Positions 7,646 through 30,142 are shown, counted from the stretch's first letter. The stretch is 64,000 nucleotides of DNA from Omnitrophica bacterium GWA2_41_15 (GCA_919902105.1 CAKKQO010000037.1:5598-69597), one strand, 5' to 3'. The notes: a model not told the origin generated them from the letters alone. Translations and numbers: made by a program.

Positions 7646-9778
7646 TTATATTTCTTGTTTTAAGCCGGCTGTTTTTTGCCATAATTCAATTACTTTGTCT
7701 ATATTTTTATTGTTAGCAAAATATTCTTCTATTTTCTTAGAGGCGGTTATTCCCATTTCTTTTGCCCTCTCTGGATTATCTATAAGATCACTAATCCTGT
7801 CCGCCATTGTCCGGTAATCCTTTTGTTCAACTATAAAACCGTTTTCCCCATCAGCGATTAAGTCTCTTGCCCCGGCAAATTTAGTTACAACAACGGCTCT
7901 ACCTGCCGCCATTGCCTCAGCCATAGCAATACAGGTTCCCTCAAATATAGAGGGCACGACATATACGTCGCATGCTGAAAGATATTGCGGTATTTTCATA
8001 TGCGGAATATTTCCAGTGAATACTACGTTATTGCTTATTTCTAACTCTAAAGCGCTTCTTTTTAAAAAATCTCCCTGGCTTCCTGAGCCGCCGATTAATA
8101 AAAGCGTGGATGGCCGGCTGTTTAGGACCAGCTTAAATGCCTTAAATAGCGTGGGGATGTCTTTCTGCTGCACAAGACGTCCAGCAAATAGGATTAATTT
8201 GTCGTACTTGCCATTTAAGTACTGTGCCCTTATATTTTGCCCATCCACCCCTTTAAACTTTGAAAGGTCGGCATTTACCGGTATAACAGATATCTTATCC
8301 TGTTTAATTCGCAGCTTATCTGCCAGTTTTTCTTTTTCGTATTTTGTGCCTACCCGTATAGTATCTGCCCTTTTTAGGATAAATTTACCTAAAATATTAA
8401 AAAATTTATTAATTTTTCTTAAATTTATCCAGTATTGATTATCGCAAAAGTCAATATGCGTCTGCACATTTAAAGGTATTTTAAAGCATTTTTTGAGCAA
8501 ATAACCTATAATGCCTGTTGTAAAAGGGTCTTCTGCCGTGATAGCATTAATCTCATTACTTTTGCATATTCGGGATGCAATTTTAAACGCGTCTAAAATA
8601 AATAAACACTTATTTTTTGAATTGGTCGGATAAATATAAAGATTATCTGCCCATTGTTCTTTTTTAAGAGCTAATTCTTTAGGGGAATAGACCACTTGAT
8701 GAAAACTGCCTAAGCGCTTAGCATAGTCAAGTTGCCTTGCTCGCACGTCTCCTCTTACATTATCATCTCTTAACATGAGGTAATCTAGTCCTATGCCCAA
8801 AACATTGGGCATATCAATGTGTCTATTTTGCTGATCAGGAGATTCTCTAAATTGCTTATGCAGATTTACCCCGTATTTGACACCTTTTATAAAATATATG
8901 AATGTTTGTGTATCGCCTTTTAACAGTGCGCTTATGCATCTCATCAGCCATCCGCAAGATAACCAGATAAAAGAAAGCCAAGCAGTGATGCTATGGGAAA
9001 AGTTTTTTAGGAATATATATGTCCAGCTGGAAGCCTCTAAGAAGATACATCTTTGTCTCGTGTGAGGGTTCCGTTCATTTCCTTCTGGGTTATGGATTAG
9101 CCGTGCTCTTGTCGTAATCGCTAAAGGATGTTTTTTAGCAATCCTTAAGCTTAAATCTATATCTTCTCCAAAAGAATATCCGTCCATAATTTTATCAAAG
9201 GTATCATCAAATTTTTCTAAGGTAATAACCTCTCTTTTGTATGAAGAACAGCCGCCGGATAACTTATTCGTGTATATGGGGTTGTGGTATTTATTAAAAT
9301 CTGCGAATATCTTTTTGCGATTATCACGAAAAATTCCCAAGCAGAAAATTTCGTTAAATATTTTAATATTGAAGTTATTGAGAGATTTCTTATTGGTAAT
9401 AACTCCCCCTACACCTGCAAGATCCGGATATTCCTTATAGGTATTAAGACTTTCTTTGATAAAATCTTTATCTAAAACCACGTCATCATCAAAGAAAAAA
9501 ATTATATCGCCTGTTGCTAATTCTATAGCCCTATTTCTTGCCTGAGCGGCCCCTGTTATTTTTGTATCAAGTATGTATTTTAAGCTAATTTTATTTTCCG
9601 CATTATTGTTATAGTTGCTGATTAGATTTTCTGCGATTAACTTAGATTCATCGTTTCTACTCTGGTCAACGATTATTACTTCATCCGGGATTTGGCTCTG
9701 GAGCAACAGACTTTTAAGCATCTCAGTTAAGTCTTTTGGGCGGTTCAGCGTGGGGAGTATTATGGATATTTTTTCCAT
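7646..9778 (-). CDS. Bifunctional glycosyltransferase: N-terminal GT2 domain plus C-terminal GT4 domain
   Basis: N-terminus ISIILPTLNRPKDLTEML...VIIVDQS is GT2-like. C-terminus EGTCIAMAEAMAAGRAVVVT...GENGFIV is GT4-like. Confidence 0.75.
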   Translation of the reverse strand: MEKISIILPTLNRPKDLTEMLKSLLLQSQIPDEVIIVDQSRNDESKLIAENLISNYNNNAENKISLKYILDTKITGAAQARNRAIELATGDIIFFFDDDVVLDKDFIKESLNTYKEYPDLAGVGGVITNKKSLNNFNIKIFNEIFCLGIFRDNRKKIFADFNKYHNPIYTNKLSGGCSSYKREVITLEKFDDTFDKIMDGYSFGEDIDLSLRIAKKHPLAITTRARLIHNPEGNERNPHTRQRCIFLEASSWTYIFLKNFSHSITAWLSFIWLSCGWLMRCISALLKGDTQTFIYFIKGVKYGVNLHKQFRESPDQQNRHIDMPNVLGIGLDYLMLRDDNVRGDVRARQLDYAKRLGSFHQVVYSPKELALKKEQWADNLYIYPTNSKNKCLFILDAFKIASRICKSNEINAITAEDPFTTGIIGYLLKKCFKIPLNVQTHIDFCDNQYWINLRKINKFFNILGKFILKRADTIRVGTKYEKEKLADKLRIKQDKISVIPVNADLSKFKGVDGQNIRAQYLNGKYDKLILFAGRLVQQKDIPTLFKAFKLVLNSRPSTLLLIGGSGSQGDFLKRSALELEISNNVVFTGNIPHMKIPQYLSACDVYVVPSIFEGTCIAMAEAMAAGRAVVVTKFAGARDLIADGENGFIVEQKDYRTMADRISDLIDNPERAKEMGITASKKIEEYFANNKNIDKVIELWQKTAGLKQEI

Positions 9779-12384: not shown

Positions 12385-12795
12385 ATGACGCCTATAAAAA
12401 TTGATAACCAAATATTTGAAAAACTTAATGTAAAACTTGTCTACCTTTTTGGTTCGCGCGCCAAGGGTAATTTCGTAAAAGAAAGCGATTTTGATATCGC
12501 CGTACTTTTTAAAAAAAAACCGTCTGACCCTTTAGCGCTGAAAGAAGTTTCGATCCTTTCGCATAAATTAAGCAAGTTTTTTCCTGCAAAAATTGATATT
12601 GTGAGCTTAAATCAATCATCGTCATTGCTTAAATATGAAGCCATAGCCTCCGGACGCCCTTTATATTGCAGCAGCGAATCCGAGCGGATTAATTTTGAGG
12701 TCTCCGTATTAAAAGAGTATATTGACGAACAGTTTATGCGTGATATATACTTTAAGGCAATGAAAAAGCGCGTTAATAAAGGAGCCTTTTCGTGA
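12385..12795 (+). CDS. mntA: MntA-type minimal nucleotidyltransferase antitoxin
   Basis: LVYLFGSRAKGNFVKESDFDIAVLF matches the GSxxxG...DxD motif. GTGA overlap with the downstream hepT. Confidence 0.75.
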   Translation: MTPIKIDNQIFEKLNVKLVYLFGSRAKGNFVKESDFDIAVLFKKKPSDPLALKEVSILSHKLSKFFPAKIDIVSLNQSSSLLKYEAIASGRPLYCSSESERINFEVSVLKEYIDEQFMRDIYFKAMKKRVNKGAFS

Positions 12796-13214
12796 TTAAT
12801 TCCGAAATAATCAAAGAACGTTTAAAAGAGATAGACGAAAACATTAAAATACTATCAGACCTGAAAAAAATGTCTTTAAAAAGTTTCATTTCTGATGTCA
12901 AAACCTGCAAGGCGGCTGAACGCTGTCTTGAGGTAAGCATACAGTGCGTTATTGATATTTGCCATCATATTATTGCCGCCAGAAATTGGCCGCGGCCAAA
13001 AGACAGCCGCGAGGCAATTATAACTATAGGTCAAAGAGGTATTATCCCCCTTACTTTTTCTAAACGTATACAGCCGATGGCCGGATTGAGAAATATTCTC
13101 GTCCATGAATATATTAAAGTTGATCCAGTTATTATTTACAAGCATCTTCGCCGCCTCGCGGATTTCCGTAAATTTCAGAAATATATCATTATTTATCTTC
13201 AAAAACACACCTAA
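12792..13214 (+). CDS. hepT: HepT (DUF86/HEPN) toxin
   Basis: The HEPN Rx4-6H motif is present as LRNILVHEY. GTG start overlapping the mntA stop. Confidence 0.75.
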   Translation: MINSEIIKERLKEIDENIKILSDLKKMSLKSFISDVKTCKAAERCLEVSIQCVIDICHHIIAARNWPRPKDSREAIITIGQRGIIPLTFSKRIQPMAGLRNILVHEYIKVDPVIIYKHLRRLADFRKFQKYIIIYLQKHT

Positions 13215-22694: not shown

Positions 22695-23984
22695 TCATTC
22701 GATATTAGTGATTATGCCGCCGGCGGAAATATTCTCGTTTTTTACCAATACAAAGCGCCCTATCTCGCGGGTGTTTTTAAAGGTGTCAATTACTATCGGC
22801 TTTTTGGTTTTGATGGTTACTTCGCCGATTTCAAGGTTTTCTAAATTTTGCGCGTCTGTTTCTATTAACTCTAAACTTGATGAGTTAATCCGTCTATGTA
22901 TCGCTTCAATCTTACAGCTTATTTCTTGCGTTGCGCAGCGCAATAAAACCTTCTCATCCTTGTTGTAGCCCTGTTTAGACATCCAGAAGACGCTTGTCTG
23001 GAATGTATCCGATACTTTCGGCTCTTTGCCTTTCTCGCATAATACATTACCTCTGTCTAAGAATACCGCGTCTTCTGTGGTTATGCCTGTGCTTTCTTGC
23101 GCAGATGCAGATTTAGCATCGCTTAAGAATTTTTCAATGCTTTTTACCCTCGTAATCTGCCCTTCAGGCAGCACTTTAACAACCTGTCCTTCTTTTATCG
23201 CCCCTGTCTCAACTCTGCCTACGATAATGCGTTTATCGTCTATCTTATATATATCCTGCACAGGAAAGATAAGCGGCTGGTTTTCTAAAGGCGCTTTATT
23301 CTTAAGTTGGCTAAGCCCTTCTAACATTGTCGGCCCTTTATACCAAGGCATATTGGTTGATTTATTGGCAATATTGTCGCCTTTTAAGGCAGAGATGGGT
23401 ATGTAGAGTTTCGGGGTTATGTTTAAGGTAATTAAGAACTTTCCTATCTTAGTTTTTAGTTCTATGTATTTTTCTGCATTAAAATCTATCAAATCCACCT
23501 TATTTATGAGGACGATTACCTGTTCTATTCCCAGCATAGAAAGGATAGTAGCGTGGCGCTTGGTCTGTTCTTGTATTCCTTCCTTGGCATCAATTATTAA
23601 AATAGCTGCCTCTGCCTGAGAGGCGCCGGTAATCATATTTTTTACGAATTCCACATGGCCCGGAGCATCAATGATTACGTATTCTTTCTTGTCTGTTTTA
23701 AAGAAGACTTGGGTTGTATCTATGGTGATGCCTTGTCGGCGCTCTTCTTCTAAATGGTCAAGAAGATAGGCGAATTCCGTATCTCTGCCTAATTCTTGGG
23801 AAGTTTTCCTTATCTCCTCCATTTTATCCGGAGGTAGAGAATTAGTATCGTAGAGCAGGCGGCCGATTAAGGTTGACTTTCCGTGGTCAACGTGTCCGAC
23901 GATGACGAATTTTAGCGACCGTTCGTCGCAGTTCGTGGTTCGTTGTTCTTTGTTCGTTGCTTGATTGTAATGCTCGCTAGTCAT
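22695..23984 (-). CDS. cysN: Sulfate adenylyltransferase subunit 1 (GTPase)
   Basis: [15 protein letters not shown] (G1 box plus the CysN-specific KSTLIGRLL), DAPGH and NKVD motifs. 429 aa with no fused APS-kinase domain. Confidence 0.85.
23921..23968. repeat. GTTCGT-rich segment (4 copies about 10 nt apart) overlapping the cysN 5' end; imperfect inverted partner of 24361-24405
   Basis: ccgttcgtcgcagttcgtggttcgttgttctttgttcgttgc. The partner's reverse complement is tttgttcgtagttcgtcgttcttagttcttcgtt. Confidence 0.5.
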
Positions 23985-24355
23985 AGAGTCCTCTTTGAAT
24001 TTTTAATATATTTGATGAAGCCTCCGATAAGGTTTTTCACTTGCGAACACTTTTGATACATTTCTTCAAATTGTGCATCCTCTATATATTTTTGTTCCAA
24101 AGCAATATAAAGATGAGATTGTATTTCCGAACATGAGCGCTGGCTGTAGCTTAAGAACTTAGCAAATTCTAGATTAGATGAGCAGTCAAAGCCCTCTGCG
24201 ATATTCGCCATTACCGATATGCCAGCTTTCCTGATTTGTTCAACCAAGGCGTAATCTACCTTAAATCTATTTTCTTTGCTGACCTTATATATAAGGCCGA
24301 CTAATATTTTTGCCTCTTGCCATGATTTAATTTCTTCAAATTTAGTAATTTTCAT
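23981..24355 (-). CDS. Four-helix-bundle protein (23S rRNA intervening-sequence protein family, PF05635-like)
   Basis: A 124-aa helical protein resembling the family encoded in 23S rRNA intervening sequences and common in glycan loci. It sits between cysD and cysN and is flanked by ACGAAC/GTTCGT-rich inverted repeats. Confidence 0.55.
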
Positions 24356-24407: not shown

Positions 24408-25208
24408 TCACATGTATCCTAATGATCTCAACTTCTGCATCATATAGGCGGATTCTTTATCTTGGGCGCGTCCACTGCGCTCAGATACTTTAGAGGTTTT
24501 TAGCTCTTCAATTATTTTATCTATAGTGTCGGCATCAGAGTCCACCGGGTTACAGCAAGTTTGACAGCCAATGCTTCTGTATCTTTTTCCATTTTTTGCC
24601 AGATAAAGCGAAGTGATGGGTATATTTTCGCGCCTTACATATTCCCAGATATCTATCTCCCGCCAGCTAAGTAATGGATGAATCCTCAGATGTTCTTCAT
24701 CTTTTGCCTTTGATTTATATTGGTCCCATAATTCCGGCGGCTGGTCTTTATAATTCCATTCAAAGTCTTCATCGCGAGGCGAGAAAAATCTTTCCTTTGC
24801 CCGTATGCCGTGCTCATCGCGCCTGATGCCTAAATACAGGGCTTTAAAGCCGTATTTTGCTATTGCGTCTTTTAAGGCATTTGTTTTAAGCTCGGTGCAG
24901 CAGGTTAATTTTTGCTTATCGGGTCCTACACCGTGTTTTATCGCCTCTTCGTTTTTGTGCACAATAAGGTTAAGATTCCATTTTTTGGCGTATTCATCGC
25001 GGAATTGGTATATTTCCTTAAATTTATATCCGGTGTCTATATGAAGCACGGGAAAAGGAAGCTTTCCATAAAATGCCTTGTGCAGAAGCCATAAAAGGGC
25101 GGTAGAATCTTTGCCGATAGACCAAAGCATTGCTACTTTTTTAAATTGATAATATGCCTCTCTGATGATAAAGATGCTTTCATTTTCTAATGCTGAAATT
25201 TTATCCAT
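24408..25208 (-). CDS. cysD: Sulfate adenylyltransferase subunit 2 (PAPS-reductase-like fold)
   Basis: WSIGKDSTALLWL is the PP-loop SGGKDS-like motif. The C-terminus CQTCCNPVD is typical of CysD. Confidence 0.85.
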   Translation of the reverse strand: MDKISALENESIFIIREAYYQFKKVAMLWSIGKDSTALLWLLHKAFYGKLPFPVLHIDTGYKFKEIYQFRDEYAKKWNLNLIVHKNEEAIKHGVGPDKQKLTCCTELKTNALKDAIAKYGFKALYLGIRRDEHGIRAKERFFSPRDEDFEWNYKDQPPELWDQYKSKAKDEEHLRIHPLLSWREIDIWEYVRRENIPITSLYLAKNGKRYRSIGCQTCCNPVDSDADTIDKIIEELKTSKVSERSGRAQDKESAYMMQKLRSLGYM

Positions 25209-26451
25209 TATTGTTCCATATCTCCCACTTTACTTTTGGTAAGAATACTGCTTTTATCTGCTTATTAAATTTATTTAATTCTATCTTAAAAATATCTTTA
25301 TTTCGTCTTGTGTAGGCACAAATCATATCCTTATCCCAGATAGAAATGCGCGCCACATATATACCGGGGGCAAGATTTATCCTGCCCAGGTCTATTTTTA
25401 TCCTGCCGCCTCCTTTAAGACTATTTATGGAAACGCCGTTGTCTTTTGTGTTTACCGAGCAGCATATCACTCCGTCGGCTCTGGCAATATCTAAACTAAA
25501 TACGGGATTTTCAATTGCCTCTTTTGCAAAATATTCAACAGTTATAGCTATCGGCTCCTCCCCCTGAAAGCTGCTTTTGATTTTATAATCCCCGTTTGAG
25601 ATTAAAACGTTTGAAATCTCTATCGGTGTATGTTGGTCTATTTTTACTCTATATCCTTCGCTATATGCCTTCTTTTTAATCTTTTCTTCCTCTTTTTTAT
25701 AGACTAAATTTTGGTAGTGTATAATTACTTCGTCTGTCGCGCCCTCTTTAAAGATTTGCCCGCCCTCTATTAAGATTACCCTCTTGCATAAGCTTTGCAC
25801 CAAAGCAAGATTATGCGAGACAAGTATAATAGTAGTATTTAATTCCAGAAGCTCTCTCATTTTATTTGCGCATTTTGCCTGAAAGGCAATATCGCCTACG
25901 GATAAAACCTCATCTACCAAGAGAATATCCGGCTCCATATGCGCCGCCACTGAAAAACCTAACCGCGAATACATCCCTGAAGAATACCTTTTAACCGGGG
26001 TATCAATGAATTCTCCCAGCTCGGAAAAATCAACTATTGAGGCAAATTTACTATCTATCTCTTTTTTTCTCATCCCTAAGATTGTTCCGTTTAGATAGAT
26101 GTTTTCGCGGCCGGTAAGTTCCGGATGAAAGCCGGCGGTTACCTCTATTAGTGCCGAGAGTTTTCCGTTTATTTTTATCTCACCCTTATTAGGGCGCAGA
26201 ATACCGGATAAAAGTTTTAAGGCGGTGCTTTTACCGGCGCCGTTAGGTCCGATAATGCCTAAGACTTCGCCCTTTTTAACTTTAAAATCTACATCCTGCA
26301 AAGCCCAGAATTCCTCTTTTTTTAGGATGTCGTTATTATTAGTAAAAGGCAGGGCCCTGCCGAACATAGCGGGGATTAAATCCCTAATGGAGTTTAGCTT
26401 CTCGCCCCTATTGAACTTCTTCCATACCTGATTAAATTCTATGACATTCAT
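25201..26451 (-). CDS. wzt: Polysaccharide ABC transporter ATP-binding protein with a C-terminal Wzt_C-like carbohydrate-binding domain
   Basis: Walker A GIIGPNGAGKST, signature YSSGMYSRLGF, Walker B ILLVDEVLSVGD, followed by a roughly 160-aa beta-rich C-terminal extension. Confidence 0.8.
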   Translation of the reverse strand: MNVIEFNQVWKKFNRGEKLNSIRDLIPAMFGRALPFTNNNDILKKEEFWALQDVDFKVKKGEVLGIIGPNGAGKSTALKLLSGILRPNKGEIKINGKLSALIEVTAGFHPELTGRENIYLNGTILGMRKKEIDSKFASIVDFSELGEFIDTPVKRYSSGMYSRLGFSVAAHMEPDILLVDEVLSVGDIAFQAKCANKMRELLELNTTIILVSHNLALVQSLCKRVILIEGGQIFKEGATDEVIIHYQNLVYKKEEEKIKKKAYSEGYRVKIDQHTPIEISNVLISNGDYKIKSSFQGEEPIAITVEYFAKEAIENPVFSLDIARADGVICCSVNTKDNGVSINSLKGGGRIKIDLGRINLAPGIYVARISIWDKDMICAYTRRNKDIFKIELNKFNKQIKAVFLPKVKWEIWNNNG

Positions 26452-26454
26452 AGT

Positions 26455-27231
26455 CTATATTCTCTCTGCAAATTGCGGCTCCAGCCTTCTGAAAAATCTT
26501 ATGCCTAAGGCAAAAATCAATATTGAACTTAACCCCGCATAGGAAAACCATAAAATATCCGGCATCTGATGCAGGACAACAGTGCTGTTGATAGATTCCA
26601 ATATGCTGGCTATGGGGTTGAGCAGCATTAGTGTTTTCCATTTGCCGAATGTGCTTACAGAGTAAAATACAGGCGTAAAAAATATGCCGAACATAAGAAT
26701 TGTTTCCACGATATATTTTACGTCCCTATAGAAAAGATTAGCCGCTGACAATATCAAGCTTAATCCGGTAGTAAAAAGTATTAAAAATAACAAGAGAAAC
26801 GGAATAAGCAAAATGTGTATGCTCAGGCCGATACGCGCGATAGCAAGCATTAGCGATAAGGTGCAGATGGCGATTAAAAAATCAAATAGACAGGCAAGCA
26901 CAGCCCCGAAAGGCAGGACTTCGCGGGGAAAATAAATCTTGGTGATAAGTGAGCTGTTTTGCACCAGGCTGTTCACTGAGAATTTTATCGCGCTGACAAA
27001 AAATGTCCAAGGGAGGACTTTAACCGTAATAGAGATAACCTCAGATAAATCTAAAGGCCTGCCTGAAATAAAAGCAATCGCCTGTTTTACTATAATTCCT
27101 GCGAGTATTGCCATAATCGGCATAAATATGGCCCAGGCAAGGCCCATTATTGCCTGTTTATACCTTACCCTGATATCGCGCATCGCCAGCATAAATAAAA
27201 GGTCTCGGTATTTTATAAGTTGATTAAACAT
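26455..27231 (-). CDS. wzm: ABC-2 type polysaccharide exporter permease
   Basis: A polytopic membrane protein of 258 aa lying immediately upstream of wzt on the same strand. Confidence 0.7.
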   Translation of the reverse strand: MFNQLIKYRDLLFMLAMRDIRVRYKQAIMGLAWAIFMPIMAILAGIIVKQAIAFISGRPLDLSEVISITVKVLPWTFFVSAIKFSVNSLVQNSSLITKIYFPREVLPFGAVLACLFDFLIAICTLSLMLAIARIGLSIHILLIPFLLLFLILFTTGLSLILSAANLFYRDVKYIVETILMFGIFFTPVFYSVSTFGKWKTLMLLNPIASILESINSTVVLHQMPDILWFSYAGLSSILIFALGIRFFRRLEPQFAERI

Positions 27232-27242
27232 TTACTGGTATC

Positions 27243-27298
27243 CTCTTAAAATCATCATCCAAACGTTCAATGTCATCTTCTTCCAAGTAGCTTCCGCT
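27243..27298. repeat. Duplicate of the manC 3' end (compare 28710-28765), encoding ...QSGSYLEEDDIERLDDDF
   Basis: About 56 nt with 4-5 mismatches. Confidence 0.8.
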
Positions 27299-27365
27299 CT
27301 GGATTTCGCCTTGTAACGCTGCGCCTGCCAAACTGAATTCGGACAAGTAGACGTAATGAACTGTG

Positions 27366-28028
27366 CTAAATTATTTTTTGCGCCAGACGATGAAGCTCTG
27401 GATTCGCTAAAGCTGACACTTTCTTTTTTACTGCCCGGGAATAATATTCTCTTTCTGTCTTGCTCAGCTTTTCGCCTTTGAGCTTTTTAAAAAACAGCTC
27501 TTTCTGTTTAGGAGAAAAAACCTGTGAAAGCGCGTATTCAACATCAAATTCCTCTTTCATAGCGACAAAGTCTTTTAGTTTTGTTTCTTCTTTTTGAAAA
27601 TAGTTATTGAATGTGGTTTTCAATCTCTGAGGCGATAAGCGCTTGCCGCAAACCGTAAGCGCTTCTCCTCTCTTAAATTGGCTAAGATATAAGTTGAAAA
27701 CTCTTTGATACCGCGAGAGATTCTTAAAAACACCTTTGGACCAGGAAAATTTTAAACCAAGGGTTTCATATAGAGCAAGCGACATCGCGAGCAATTGATC
27801 AAGGCATTTTTTTTCAGCATGTTTTTTTAACTGAACCTTTACTTTTTCATACTCGAACAAGCCGTCTTTGGCGGCATTAACCAATAAAAGAGGAAACCCT
27901 TCCCAGAGCCGCAGGTCGCGGTTTACAACAACCCGAGCCAAGGTGGTATTAACGTCAACATCTTCGTCTTTTTTAAAAAGAGGGTAACCCATCATCTCGA
28001 CTTTTTTTAAGAGCGCTTCATTTTTCAT
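27366..28028 (-). CDS. Hypothetical protein (about 220 aa), downstream partner of the NTase-like gene 28018-28608
   Basis: Start taken at MKNEALLKK (28028). The ORF track's longer N-terminal extension would overlap the upstream gene by 100 nt. Confidence 0.3.
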   Translation of the reverse strand: MKNEALLKKVEMMGYPLFKKDEDVDVNTTLARVVVNRDLRLWEGFPLLLVNAAKDGLFEYEKVKVQLKKHAEKKCLDQLLAMSLALYETLGLKFSWSKGVFKNLSRYQRVFNLYLSQFKRGEALTVCGKRLSPQRLKTTFNNYFQKEETKLKDFVAMKEEFDVEYALSQVFSPKQKELFFKKLKGEKLSKTEREYYSRAVKKKVSALANPELHRLAQKII

Positions 28029-28608
28029 TGTATAATCCCTCTTTACGCAGAATTTTGACAAAATGCGATAAATTCTTATTAACTTTTTCTTCCGAAACGT
28101 CATATGAGGCAGTTTCACTAAAACGTTTCAAAAGGATATCTAGGTTAATATCGTGTTTTTTGGTTTTTACCAAAAGCAGACAGTCATCCATATCAGTACT
28201 GCTTGCCCTAAAAAGTTTACTGATGATAAGATCATAATGATTGAGCACCCCCAGATAAATAGATTTAAACTCTTTAATTAGCGCGTGATTGCCTTCTTTA
28301 AGCGGCGATTCCAGCAATTCTGTGGTATGGATTCGTTTTCCTTTGAACAAGTCAAAAATAAAACCCCCGTCTTTTGTCCATCCGGAACCGCTAGCGTTCC
28401 TATAGCCTAAGTCTTGTAAAATACGCAAGAGATAGTCATGTTCTGCTTCGTTGGGCGCTAATAGGTCAATATCTTTTGTGGATTCTTTTATACCTAAAAG
28501 CGTCAGAGCCGTGCCGCCGCAGGCGATCAAATGTATTTTTCGCTTGAGATAGCCATTCCATATAGAAAGCGTATCTAGCAAGCTTTCTTTGTTTATTCTA
28601 TATTCCAT
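28018..28608 (-). CDS. Short AbiEii-like nucleotidyltransferase-fold protein (196 aa)
   Basis: IACGGTALTLLGIKESTKDIDLL carries a GGTAL motif followed by SxKDIDL. Confidence 0.5.
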   Translation of the reverse strand: MEYRINKESLLDTLSIWNGYLKRKIHLIACGGTALTLLGIKESTKDIDLLAPNEAEHDYLLRILQDLGYRNASGSGWTKDGGFIFDLFKGKRIHTTELLESPLKEGNHALIKEFKSIYLGVLNHYDLIISKLFRASSTDMDDCLLLVKTKKHDINLDILLKRFSETASYDVSEEKVNKNLSHFVKILRKEGLYNEK

Positions 28609-28705
28609 ACAATTGTTTGTATAAATTCATACAACTTCTTGTATATAATTATACAACATATTTGATATCTTGTCAAGGTCTTTGCTAGTGGAATCTGAAG
28701 CGCAG

Positions 28706-30142
28706 CTATCTATTAAAATCATCATCCAAACGTTCGATGTCGTCTTCTTCCAAGTAGCTTCCGCTTTGCACTTCCACTATTTTTAACGCAGAGTCTTTAG
28801 GGTTTTCTAAGCGGTGGACGTGCCCGGCAGAGACAAAGATGCTTTCATTGCTGTTAATTAAGCTTACCTTGCCTTCGCAGGTTACTTTTGCTGTGCCTTC
28901 CACCACTACCCAGTGTTCGCTTCTAAACTTATGCCTCTGAAGGCTTAGGCGTTTATGCGGCACTAATTCGATAAGTTTAACCTTATATCCTTTGCCGGTG
29001 TTTATGACCGTGTAGGTTCCCCACGGCCGCTTGACAGTATGCGAGGAAAAATGTTCGTATCCCCCCTTTTTCTTAACGAGCTCTACCATCTGTTTAACAT
29101 CTTCGGCTCTGTCCTTAGCGCAGACCAATAGAGCGTCTTCAGTATCCACAATAATTAGATCTTTAAGGCCTACGGTGGAAATTAAGTGATTTTTGCCTAT
29201 GACAGTAATATCCCTGCTGTTGATGTCAATGGAGTTTGCCTGAATGATGTTTCCGCTCTTGTCTTTAGGCAGAAGCGCATCCAGCGCAGAGAGCGTGCCT
29301 AAATCGCTCCAGCCTAATTTCTCGGCAGGTATGACAACAGTTTGCCTTGATTTTTCCAATACGCCGTAGTCGATAGAGATAGATTCAAACAGAGAATAGG
29401 TCTTATCAATATCAGCGCCATCGCTTACTCTCTTGAGGGCGGTGTATAGTTGCGGAAGGTATCTTTTTAGTTCATCTAAAATAACCCTGGATTTAGCGAT
29501 AAACATTCCGCTGTTCCAGAGGTAGTTTTTGTTTTTGATGAATCTTTGCGCTGTTTTTAAGTCCGGTTTTTCGGTAAATTTTTCAACTTTATAATATTTC
29601 GGATTTCGGCATTCGGATTTCGGATTTATCTTGATATATCCATACCCTGCGGCAGGATATGTTGGCTTTATGCCCAATGTTACGAGGTAGCCCTTATGCG
29701 CGGCTAAAATGGCATTTTTAACCAGCGATTTAAATTTTTCCAGATTAGCGATATGGTGGTCAGCCGGCAGGATTATGAGTAGTGAGTCCGTATCTTTTTT
29801 AATAAGATTAAACGCGGCGAGTCCTATTGCCGGAGCGGTATTTTTTCCCTGAGGCTCTAAGATTATATTTTCTTCTGGGATGCCGAATATAGATATTTGA
29901 TTCTCTAGTTCAAACTTATGCAGGTTGTTAGTTACGATATAAATTCGGTTAGGATTAATTAAAGGGATAATCCGCTTTATAGTCTGCTGAAGTAAGGATT
30001 CTTCGTTATAGAATTTAAGCAGGTGTTTTGGTTCAAGTTGGCGGCTGAGCGGCCAGAATCGGCTGCCTACGCCACCGGCTAATATGACCGCATACATGTT
30101 AGTTTTATTCGTAAGTATCGAGTCGCGAGTATTGCGTGTCAT
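28706..30142 (-). CDS. manC: Mannose-1-phosphate guanylyltransferase / mannose-6-phosphate isomerase (bifunctional, cupin C-terminus)
   Basis: MYAVILAGGVGSRFWPLSR nucleotidyltransferase N-terminus and a cupin-type C-terminus. The true start is probably the M at about 30097. Confidence 0.85.
   Translation of the reverse strand: MTRNTRDSILTNKTNMYAVILAGGVGSRFWPLSRQLEPKHLLKFYNEESLLQQTIKRIIPLINPNRIYIVTNNLHKFELENQISIFGIPEENIILEPQGKNTAPAIGLAAFNLIKKDTDSLLIILPADHHIANLEKFKSLVKNAILAAHKGYLVTLGIKPTYPAAGYGYIKINPKSECRNPKYYKVEKFTEKPDLKTAQRFIKNKNYLWNSGMFIAKSRVILDELKRYLPQLYTALKRVSDGADIDKTYSLFESISIDYGVLEKSRQTVVIPAEKLGWSDLGTLSALDALLPKDKSGNIIQANSIDINSRDITVIGKNHLISTVGLKDLIIVDTEDALLVCAKDRAEDVKQMVELVKKKGGYEHFSSHTVKRPWGTYTVINTGKGYKVKLIELVPHKRLSLQRHKFRSEHWVVVEGTAKVTCEGKVSLINSNESIFVSAGHVHRLENPKDSALKIVEVQSGSYLEEDDIERLDDDFNR

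Follow-up and report, generated by a model that had tools for sequence, protein, structure and literature searches.

A candidate nucleotidyltransferase toxin-antitoxin pair with an undescribed partner family in a surface-polysaccharide locus of an Omnitrophica bacterium

A self-contained two-gene cassette lies between manC and wzm

We analyzed a stretch of 64,000 nt from Omnitrophica bacterium GWA2_41_15 (GCA_919902105.1 CAKKQO010000037.1:5598-69597), called the window below, with positions counted from its first letter. Between the polysaccharide genes manC and wzm, the window carries two overlapping genes that encode a 196-amino acid (aa) nucleotidyltransferase of family DUF6036 (gene A) and a 220-aa protein of an undescribed family (gene B). 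In our assessment, the balance tips slightly toward positions 27366-28676 being a self-contained, self-regulated module in which a MenT-like toxin is paired with a novel antitoxin and repressor, carried as a passenger in a hypervariable polysaccharide locus. The systems that it would probably be comparable to in function are MenAT and AbiE, with a partner family that is new. In the mechanism that we propose, a predicted strong sigma-70 promoter would drive A and then B, which would be translationally coupled. A would inhibit growth, most likely by adding nucleotides to the 3' acceptor ends of tRNAs, as MenT1 and MenT3 do, and B would neutralize A, whether by direct binding or by causing A to be phosphorylated at the invariant T44; this threonine stands two residues before the predicted catalytic D46, as T39 of MenT1 stands before D41. 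The invariant lysine-rich C-terminal helices of B would bind an array of half-sites that is predicted to extend over the -10 box and the transcription start into the start codon; in this way, B would repress its own operon. The elements of the cassette are as follows:

28648-28676, minus strand: cassette promoter, TTGACA (28676-28671), 17-nt spacer, TATAAT (28653-28648); 12 of 12 positions of the sigma-70 consensus
28606-28656, minus strand: putative operator array, TTGTAT-N6-ATACAA-N4-TTGTAT-N6-ATACAA-N4-TTGTATG
28018-28608, minus strand: gene A, 196-aa DUF6036 nucleotidyltransferase, proposed toxin; match to PF19502, E=1.5e-9
27366-28031, minus strand: gene B, 220-aa all-alpha protein of an undescribed family, proposed antitoxin and autorepressor; no family match

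The two genes overlap by 14 nt, where the ATG of B (28031), preceded by AAAGAGGGA, overlaps the end of A, whose stop codon is at 28018-28020. A listing of open reading frames (ORFs) starts B at an upstream GTG (250 aa). Because all 40 aligned homologues are 216-224 aa long and start at ATG 28031, we take B to be 220 aa from this ATG. The original prediction from this DNA, of an uncharacterized two-gene module arranged like a toxin-antitoxin pair, is supported, and the two genes are tightly coupled.

Gene A encodes a predicted active nucleotidyltransferase

The A protein carries an ACGGTAL...DIDL motif of the polymerase-beta type. It matched PF19502 (DUF6036) over residues 24-181 and model positions 19-153 of 164, with 38.3 bits against a cut-off of 23.6 (E=1.5e-9), and a protein identical to A is named 'DUF6036 family nucleotidyltransferase' by NCBI. 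Both A and B have identical counterparts in a metagenome-assembled genome of Candidatus Omnitrophota. Pfam describes DUF6036 as a nucleotidyltransferase of unknown function, and no paper mentioning DUF6036 was found in the literature searched. Other families gave weak or no signals. A had no match to PF08843 (AbiEii/DUF1814) at E up to 0.1 and none to PF01909 or PF18765, the MNT families. The PADLOC AbiEii model matched residues 127-180 only (E=1.1e-3), the NCBIfam ANT_3pp_I (AadA) model gave 12.4 bits against a cut-off of 375, and these two models reached only residues 127-185, far below any cut-off. The profile of A had a sole marginal match among PDB sequences, to AbiGII chain 9hlo_B (E=0.08) over the same helices; in these searches there was no sequence-level match to MenT1, to which identity is only ~16%.

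The relationship to MenT1 appeared at the level of the fold. With an AlphaFold model of A (predicted local distance difference test score, pLDDT, 86; predicted template-modeling score 0.82), the best Foldseek match in the PDB was the MenT1 toxin (8an5_A, E=2.5e-5, template-modeling [TM] score 0.60). A further MenT1 match was 8an4, and MenT1 matches ranged from E=2.5e-5 to 4e-4 with TM scores of 0.59-0.60. The best match was followed, in order, by TM1012, ANT(2'')-Ia, JHP933, LnuA, MenT4 (6y56, E=1.3e-3) and TglT, which is MenT3 (6j7q, E=3.7e-3). The claim that A is an 'AbiEii-like' enzyme therefore held for its being a nucleotidyltransferase and failed for AbiEii, given the match to DUF6036, the lack of a match to PF08843, and a fold nearest to MenT1, TM1012 and ANT(2'').

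Nine residues were invariant in the 40-47 homologues compared (G31, G32, T44, D46, D48, K131, R134, D139 and D142), and D86 was nearly so. They constitute the polymerase-beta metal-binding motif together with the Lys/Arg/Asp helices common to MenT, AbiEii and ANT enzymes. In MenT1, the functionally tested residues are T39, which is the phospho-acceptor, D41, K137 and D152 (PMC11375011), and motifs I-IV of MenT proteins include a Ser/Thr phospho-acceptor before the first catalytic Asp, a Lys in motif III and an Asp in motif IV (PMC11375011, PMC10435456). We infer by pattern, rather than by residue-level superposition, that the equivalents of these four MenT1 residues in A are T44, D46, K131 and D142. 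Judged by the fold matches and the invariant residues, A appears to be an active enzyme and to fall in the structural group that comprises MenT, AbiEii and ANT.

Gene B encodes a helical protein of an undescribed family

B had no match in Pfam, NCBIfam, PADLOC or PHROG, and no family recurred when 70 diverse relatives of B were compared with Pfam at E up to 1. Profiles built from 40 and 70 sequences returned only chance-level matches among PDB sequences (retinoblastoma pocket, IcmQ and a designed miniprotein). The structure model of B is all-alpha with one small hairpin (pLDDT 78), and a Foldseek search of the PDB with this model returned nothing better than E=0.97; the fold of B is probably new. 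The profile searches, the PDB searches and the structure model thus agree with the earlier statement that the 220-aa protein belongs to an undescribed family. Among the 70 members, there was no match to AbiEi_1, _2, _3 or _4 at E up to 1, and a relationship to AbiEi was also rejected by hhalign, which gave a probability of <0.2% against AbiEi_1, _2 and _4 proteins from loci neighboring the pair in other genomes.

Conservation of B is highest in an N-terminal RLWEGFP motif and, most of all, in the lysine-rich last 60 residues, which are nearly invariant (FSPKQKELF..KL.GEKLTKTE.EYYSRVVKKK..ALAN..LHRLA). Set alongside the equally invariant half-sites described next, this pattern leads us to infer, as a working proposal from conservation, that the helical C-terminal region of B reads TTGTAT.

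A conserved promoter and half-site array precede gene A

The consensus sigma-70 promoter of the cassette is the only perfect one in 27100-28900, and its TTGAC element stands at the same distance from the A ATG in 36 of 39 loci that aligned in register. Over and downstream of it lie half-sites of alternating orientation: TTGTAT at 28656-28651, where it overlaps the -10 box, ATACAA at 28644-28639, TTGTAT at 28634-28629, ATACAA at 28622-28617 and TTGTAT at 28612-28607. The last unit, TTGTATG, contains the start codon of A. Apart from the two at 28607-28622 and 28629-28644, no perfect ATACAA-N4-TTGTAT palindrome occurs in the 64 kb, where 0.32 would be expected even with one mismatch allowed. When 61 loci of other genomes were anchored on the ATG, 39 showed the array with ≤4 mismatches over the 29 specified positions, including 23 without any mismatch, and most of the remaining loci had the same half-sites in a shifted register. 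The half-sites are constant and the spacers between them vary, which fits sequence-specific binding of DNA by a protein.

Variants of the array were seen upstream of A in L047, L048, L051, L061, L072, L078, L080 and L087 (L numbers denote loci of other genomes), with one or two extra TTGTAT/ATACAA units inserted after the usual array and ahead of the ATG, or with TTGTAC/GTACAA half-sites. These variants imply that the array expands and drifts while staying palindromic.

The leader RNA of A can form a hairpin (AUACAAacaaUUGUAUG; 28590-28642, minus strand) that buries the AUG (-8.3 kcal/mol, z = -2.5). This hairpin may act on translation, as a further level of control besides the DNA operator. 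No Shine-Dalgarno sequence stands next to the ATG in the leader.

Gene A is lost repeatedly while gene B is kept

We collected 80 species-level genome loci, from 80 assemblies, by similarity to B. In these loci, A immediately precedes B, and the gap between them is -10 to +30 nt. A was intact in 65 of the 76 loci that could be assessed and was absent or disrupted, beside a full ORF for B, in the other 11. The lesions are independent: internal deletions in L027 and L036, frameshifts in L034 and L035, a premature end in L072, 5' or 3' truncations in L057 and L081, and complete loss in L015, L050, L052 and L064. In L009/L010 and L015, an internal deletion took out the catalytic body of A, whereas the promoter, the operator and the first codons of A were kept, as were its last codons with the ribosome-binding site of B. 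In L052, the first three codons of A are joined straight to B. Repeated loss of A with retention of B and of the control region is what would be expected of a toxin, and it suggests that the harm comes from A, with B as the antidote and probably also the autorepressor. Conversely, B directly followed A in all five A-anchored contexts, of which about four are independent.

The same data bear on a reversal of roles, in which the pair would resemble HepT-MNT, with A as an antitoxin that nucleotidylates B, and B as an all-helical toxin. The gene order and overlap are those of MNT-HepT pairs, and B is all-alpha. However, B is intact in the 11 of 76 loci in which A is lost or broken, which would be lethal if B needed A to restrain it. 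B also had no HEPN or HepT match at E up to 1 over the 70 family members and no conserved Rx4-6H motif, and A, besides lacking the MNT signatures, carries in its C-terminal part the K..R..D..D helices that characterize MenT, AbiEii and ANT proteins. A positive control was provided by the window itself, where a genuine MNT-HepT pair at 12385-13214 on the plus strand (a 136-aa Polbeta/NTP_transf_2 protein and a 140-aa HepT-like protein with a 4-nt overlap) did match both the MNT and the HepT models. We regard the reversed assignment as very improbable and keep A as the predicted toxin.

The pair is widespread and its neighbors vary

The pair belongs to a large family. At 90% identity, homologues formed 1,913 clusters for B and 1,763 for A, with the contigs that bear the two often equal in length, and at 50% identity the B family comprised 382 clusters (exhaustive HMMER search of 1.84 billion representatives), nearly all of stand-alone proteins of ~220 aa. 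The module had been proposed as new, which holds for its annotation but must be set against an existing family of some 1,800-1,900 protein clusters for each gene. At least 309 genomes of a species-level collection encode a relative of B. About 47 of the best 80 B-bearing genomes are labelled Omnitrophota, and the rest carry assorted labels, some of which are probably artefacts of binning or naming. Across the family, identity to the window's proteins is ~53-87% for A and ~44-80% for B, A being the more conserved.

By contrast with this conservation of the pair, its surroundings differ from locus to locus: the 138 ORFs upstream contained 143 Pfam families, and the 130 downstream contained 128. 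Recurrent neighbors include Fic, AbiEii, PemK, Gp49/HTH_3, AAA_14-DUF4143, glycosyltransferases and epimerases, and other neighbors of toxin-antitoxin or defense type are zeta toxin and restriction enzymes. L006, L007 and L180 are arrays of AbiEi/AbiEii-type pairs; AbiEii-AbiEi_4 pairs that are enzyme-first like A-B lie beside it in L180 (2470-3877) and L007 (6204-7455), and a zeta toxin gene lies immediately downstream of B in L177 (6353-6928). manC adjoins the pair in only one of the 80 loci (L011, the same contig as L001, the closest relative of the window), and L091, a related genome, lacks the cassette. The pair is thus not conserved in synteny, in line with the earlier proposal. A third conserved gene was considered and rejected: the 146-aa ORF that precedes A in L012 and L180 comes from one locus sampled twice (99% identical) and is unrelated to the 160-aa ORF of L177.

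These contexts allow two non-toxic explanations to be weighed. In one, A would be a small-molecule nucleotidyltransferase of the ANT(2'')-Ia or LnuA type that acts on a sugar-containing metabolite, an antibiotic or a surface-polysaccharide precursor, with B as its dedicated regulator or accessory subunit. Foldseek ranked ANT(2'')-Ia (E=1.5e-4 to 2.3e-4) and LnuA (7.7e-4) only a little behind MenT1. Genomes of the subclade nearest to the window carry the pair within polysaccharide clusters of the sugar-nucleotide and ABC-transporter kind, where it at times overlaps the biosynthetic gene that follows, and other occurrences are in exosortase/EpsI loci. Yet no neighbor is constant over the 80 genomes, many contexts are unrelated to sugars (ribosomal protein L27, a sigma factor, tRNA synthetases, arrays of AbiE pairs), the score with the AadA model is far below its cut-off, and recurrent deletion of the enzyme with the supposedly accessory gene and the control region kept is hard to explain in this way. 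We consider this explanation quite unlikely.

In the other, the pair would be a non-toxic regulatory device inherited vertically in Omnitrophota, for example with B as a transcription factor set by nucleotidylation by A, and moved by genome rearrangement. The pair appears to be single-copy per genome (80 loci in 80 assemblies) and very common, in a large share of one phylum; its sequence conservation is high, and its nearest neighbors are mostly co-directional (60 of 71 upstream, 52 of 72 downstream). The 64-kb window has no further TTGTAT palindrome and hence shows no sign of a regulon. Moreover, the related genome L091 lacks the pair at this locus, the contexts are enriched in toxin-antitoxin and defense genes, and relatives of B occur in assemblies labelled as other phyla, some of which labels may be binning errors. 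A regulatory device of this kind is unlikely on this evidence.

Several points nevertheless weigh against a toxin-antitoxin function for the pair. Single-copy, phylum-wide presence is less patchy than the distribution of many toxin-antitoxin families, and the repeated placement of the pair inside polysaccharide clusters in the closest subclade would also fit a role in those pathways. The fold similarity of A to ANT(2'')-Ia and LnuA is about as strong as that to MenT1, with TM scores of only 0.5-0.6, and neither the structure model nor Foldseek gave B a recognizable helix-turn-helix or other DNA-binding domain. A search of 2.9 million viral contigs yielded no relative of A, so that carriage by phages was not seen. 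The loci were picked by similarity to B, and the intactness of B is therefore in part a selection effect; likewise, the statement that intact A never occurs without B rests on the small A-anchored sample.

The manC-tail repeat as a proposed scar of an old recombination

The genes of the cassette region are all on the minus strand and are transcribed in the order manC, A, B, a remnant of the manC tail, wzm and wzt. The features that flank the pair are as follows:

28706-30142, minus strand: manC, whole gene; PF00483, PF22640 and PF01050 (NTP_transferase, ManC beta-helix and mannose-6-P isomerase domains)
28706-28774, minus strand: 3' end of manC with the upstream repeat copy, part of the intact gene
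27243-27330, minus strand: manC 3'-end remnant (core 27243-27307, weaker similarity to ~27330), recognized by DNA and protein similarity to manC
26455-27231, minus strand: wzm, ABC-2 permease (ABC2_membrane), the first gene past the cassette
25201-26451, minus strand: wzt (ABC_tran and Wzt_C)

The spacer between manC and A is 97 nt. By far the longest direct repeat in 26000-30000 pairs 27243-27307 with 28710-28774 (65 nt, 91% identical), and at the protein level residues 457-478 of manC aligned with 27307-27242 at 20 of 22 residues (91% identity, E=3e-7). The duplication of the manC 3' end, first described as 27243-27298 copying 28710-28765, was thus confirmed, with a repeat that is nine bases longer. 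The remnant reads ...LQGEIQSGSYLEEDDIERLDDDFKRIPVNV*, and the stop codon of its frame overlaps the ATG of wzm at 27229-27231 (ATGTTTAA), as an old, translationally coupled manC-wzm junction would; the resemblance is to such a junction. Over the stretch that starts with the V/I codon and ends with the last sense codon, seven differences separate the remnant from the intact tail, and four of them are at synonymous third-codon positions. These differences suggest, from sites that are too few to test, that the two tails may derive from two manC alleles that diverged while functional.

Comparison with relatives bears on the age of this arrangement. L001 has the same cassette after manC, with 85% nucleotide identity over the cassette DNA, and an orthologous remnant at 7595-7662 (88% identical over 68 nt). 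The sequence LQxExQSGSY is common to the two remnants and takes the place of LKIVEVQSGSY in the intact genes. The gene order in L001 is manC, A, B, a gene X, the remnant, a pyruvyl transferase and further genes, and its downstream polysaccharide genes are unlike those of the window. X is a 260-aa gene (6823-7605) with a weak xylose-isomerase-like TIM-barrel match, between B and the remnant. As side observations on L001, the 3' end of X overlaps the manC remnant in another frame, the remnant (7560-7680) is longer there, at ~38 codons (QRVETAEAGTTLQSEVQSGSYLEEDDIERLDDDFHGNR*), and a GC-rich inverted repeat follows the stop codon of B.

L091 has the same upstream genes followed by manC, an epimerase, wzm and wzt, with neither cassette nor remnant. 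The epimerase (4006-5016; 336 aa, NAD-dependent) overlaps both manC and wzm, which implies that the interval between these two genes is a variable slot even without the cassette. No directly 'empty' manC-wzm junction was found among 80 metagenome loci anchored on wzm; the nearest was L091, with the epimerase in between. In L171, L174 and L179, the order is manC, deacetylase, ATP-grasp, A, B, acetyltransferase, wzm and wzt (the contig of L179 starts at the deacetylase gene), and in L177 it is UDP-glucose dehydrogenase, epimerase, the 160-aa ORF, A, B and zeta toxin. Throughout the closest subclade, the pair recurs just after a conserved export block (Poly_export, Wzz, AAA_22 and AAA_31, to which DAGK also belongs in relatives) and sugar-nucleotide genes, and the immediate neighbors of A-B there differ. 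Because the neighbors vary among the window, L001, L171/L174/L179, L177 and L091, and L091 lacks the cassette, we conclude that the cassette is accessory. It is nevertheless old, since the cassette of L001 shows that its placement after manC predates the split between the window and L001. The insertion between manC and wzm that was originally proposed is therefore not a recent one in this genome, given the cassette and the orthologous remnant of L001.

Instead, we propose that an old recombination brought together two blocks, an upstream one ending in manC-A-B and a downstream one that started inside another manC allele fused to wzm. The duplicated manC tail would then be a scar of recombination, the cassette would not have inserted itself, and it would be a passenger in a hypervariable surface-polysaccharide locus. 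An alternative origin of the repeat is as the target-site signature of a site-specific mobile element that entered the 3' end of manC and restored the gene, as the original description implied. In its favor, the cassettes of the window and of L001 are both flanked by direct repeats, and the upstream gene stays intact. Against such an element, no integrase, transposase or tRNA was found in or beside the 1.4-kb cassette, the nearest tRNA being >25 kb away; manC is adjacent in a single one of the 80 loci and is thus not a preferred target; an unrelated TIM-barrel-like gene lies inside the repeats of L001; and the seven differences, too few to test as they are, look like those of two alleles rather than of a fresh duplication. 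A mobile element of this type is highly improbable, and we favor the recombination scar. The GC profile showed no discontinuity over the cassette, and a foreign base composition was rejected. No terminator-like site was seen on the minus strand between B and wzm, and known RNA elements in 26800-29200 gave nothing above noise.

In complete Omnitrophota genomes, hypervariable regions are reported to be enriched in restriction-modification, toxin-antitoxin and cell-surface biosynthesis genes (preprint, bioRxiv 10.64898/2026.06.07.730766), the categories that also recur beside A-B.

Likeness to known nucleotidyltransferase systems

Nucleotidyltransferase toxins such as MenT and AbiEii are an active field, and their antitoxins are unusually diverse. 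MenA1, the antitoxin of MenT1, is a small protein encoded upstream of its toxin. B differs from it in being 220 aa long, unrelated and encoded downstream of A. MenAT1 of Mycobacterium tuberculosis (Rv0078B-Rv0078A) is likewise a two-gene operon, in which the solved chains of MenT1 have 184-195 residues, about the size of A, and A shares with MenT1 a polymerase-beta core and a helical domain with invariant Lys and Asp residues. In its pattern, the T44-K-D46 of A also parallels the T39-R-D41 of MenT1, with a Thr two residues before the first catalytic Asp (PMC11375011). In contrast, MenT toxins are classed as DUF1814 and A as DUF6036. MenT antitoxins come from several unrelated families (PMC11375011), so a further antitoxin family would be a variant and not a new kind of system.

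With AbiE, the pair has in common a nucleotidyltransferase with a partner of ~200 aa, the K..R..D..D pattern, and inverted repeats in the promoter that suggest autoregulation, here the conserved half-site array over the promoter and start codon. However, A has no match to PF08843, B matches no AbiEi family, and B has neither a predicted winged helix-turn-helix nor a pseudo-nucleotidyltransferase C-terminal domain. Of the earlier idea of an AbiE-like module, membership in AbiE thus falls away, since A is not AbiEii, B is not AbiEi and the enzyme comes first, whereas the idea that the pair works like AbiE is probably right. HepT-MNT systems (type VII) resemble the pair in having the enzyme first, a helical protein second and overlapping genes, and differ in that A lacks the Pfam signatures of MNT and has an extra C-terminal catalytic helical domain, and that B lacks the HEPN motif and persists without A. 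Finally, TM1012 of Thermotoga maritima (2fcl, 2ewr, 4hx0) and JHP933 of Helicobacter pylori, which ranked second and sixth among the fold matches of A (E=8e-5 and 1.9e-4), are small orphan putative nucleotidyltransferases for which no partner gene or regulatory array is described in the literature searched.

Implications

Members of Omnitrophota are thought to be ultra-small and host-dependent. If the toxin-antitoxin assignment is true, the pair would give a function to the Pfam family DUF6036, and it would add a large unannotated partner family of 382 clusters at 50% identity that has no domain, solved relative or fold match. The highly conserved promoter and operator would make regulation directly testable on a 70-bp fragment, and the asymmetric decay leads to a clear prediction as to the toxic gene. 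Surface-polysaccharide loci of Omnitrophota would double as parking places for selfish or defensive modules, which matters when variation at such loci is read as serotype-like. If the pair is non-toxic, its value would be limited to better annotation.

A bolder version, which we put forward tentatively and hold to be rather doubtful, is that B founds a family of antitoxins and DNA-binding proteins, with a fold absent from the PDB, that controls a MenT1-like DUF6036 toxin by an undescribed mechanism. The pair would then be a very common, and possibly the dominant, nucleotidyltransferase toxin-antitoxin family of Omnitrophota. Under such a mechanism, a single 220-aa B might both read the 11-bp-phased TTGTAT array that runs into the start codon and induce autophosphorylation of A.

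Other features of the window

Across the 64 kb, nearly all non-shadow ORFs of ≥120 aa are on the minus strand, and the MNT-HepT pair at 12385-13214 makes up almost the only plus-strand genes in this long array. A 124-aa '23S rRNA intervening sequence protein' (PF05635, four-helix bundle; 23981-24355, minus strand) is encoded between cysD (24408-25208) and cysN (22695-23984), and the end of its gene overlaps the start of cysN. In L001, cysD runs directly into cysN without the PF05635 gene, and genes of the PF05635 family are also present in the polysaccharide loci L009 and L177.

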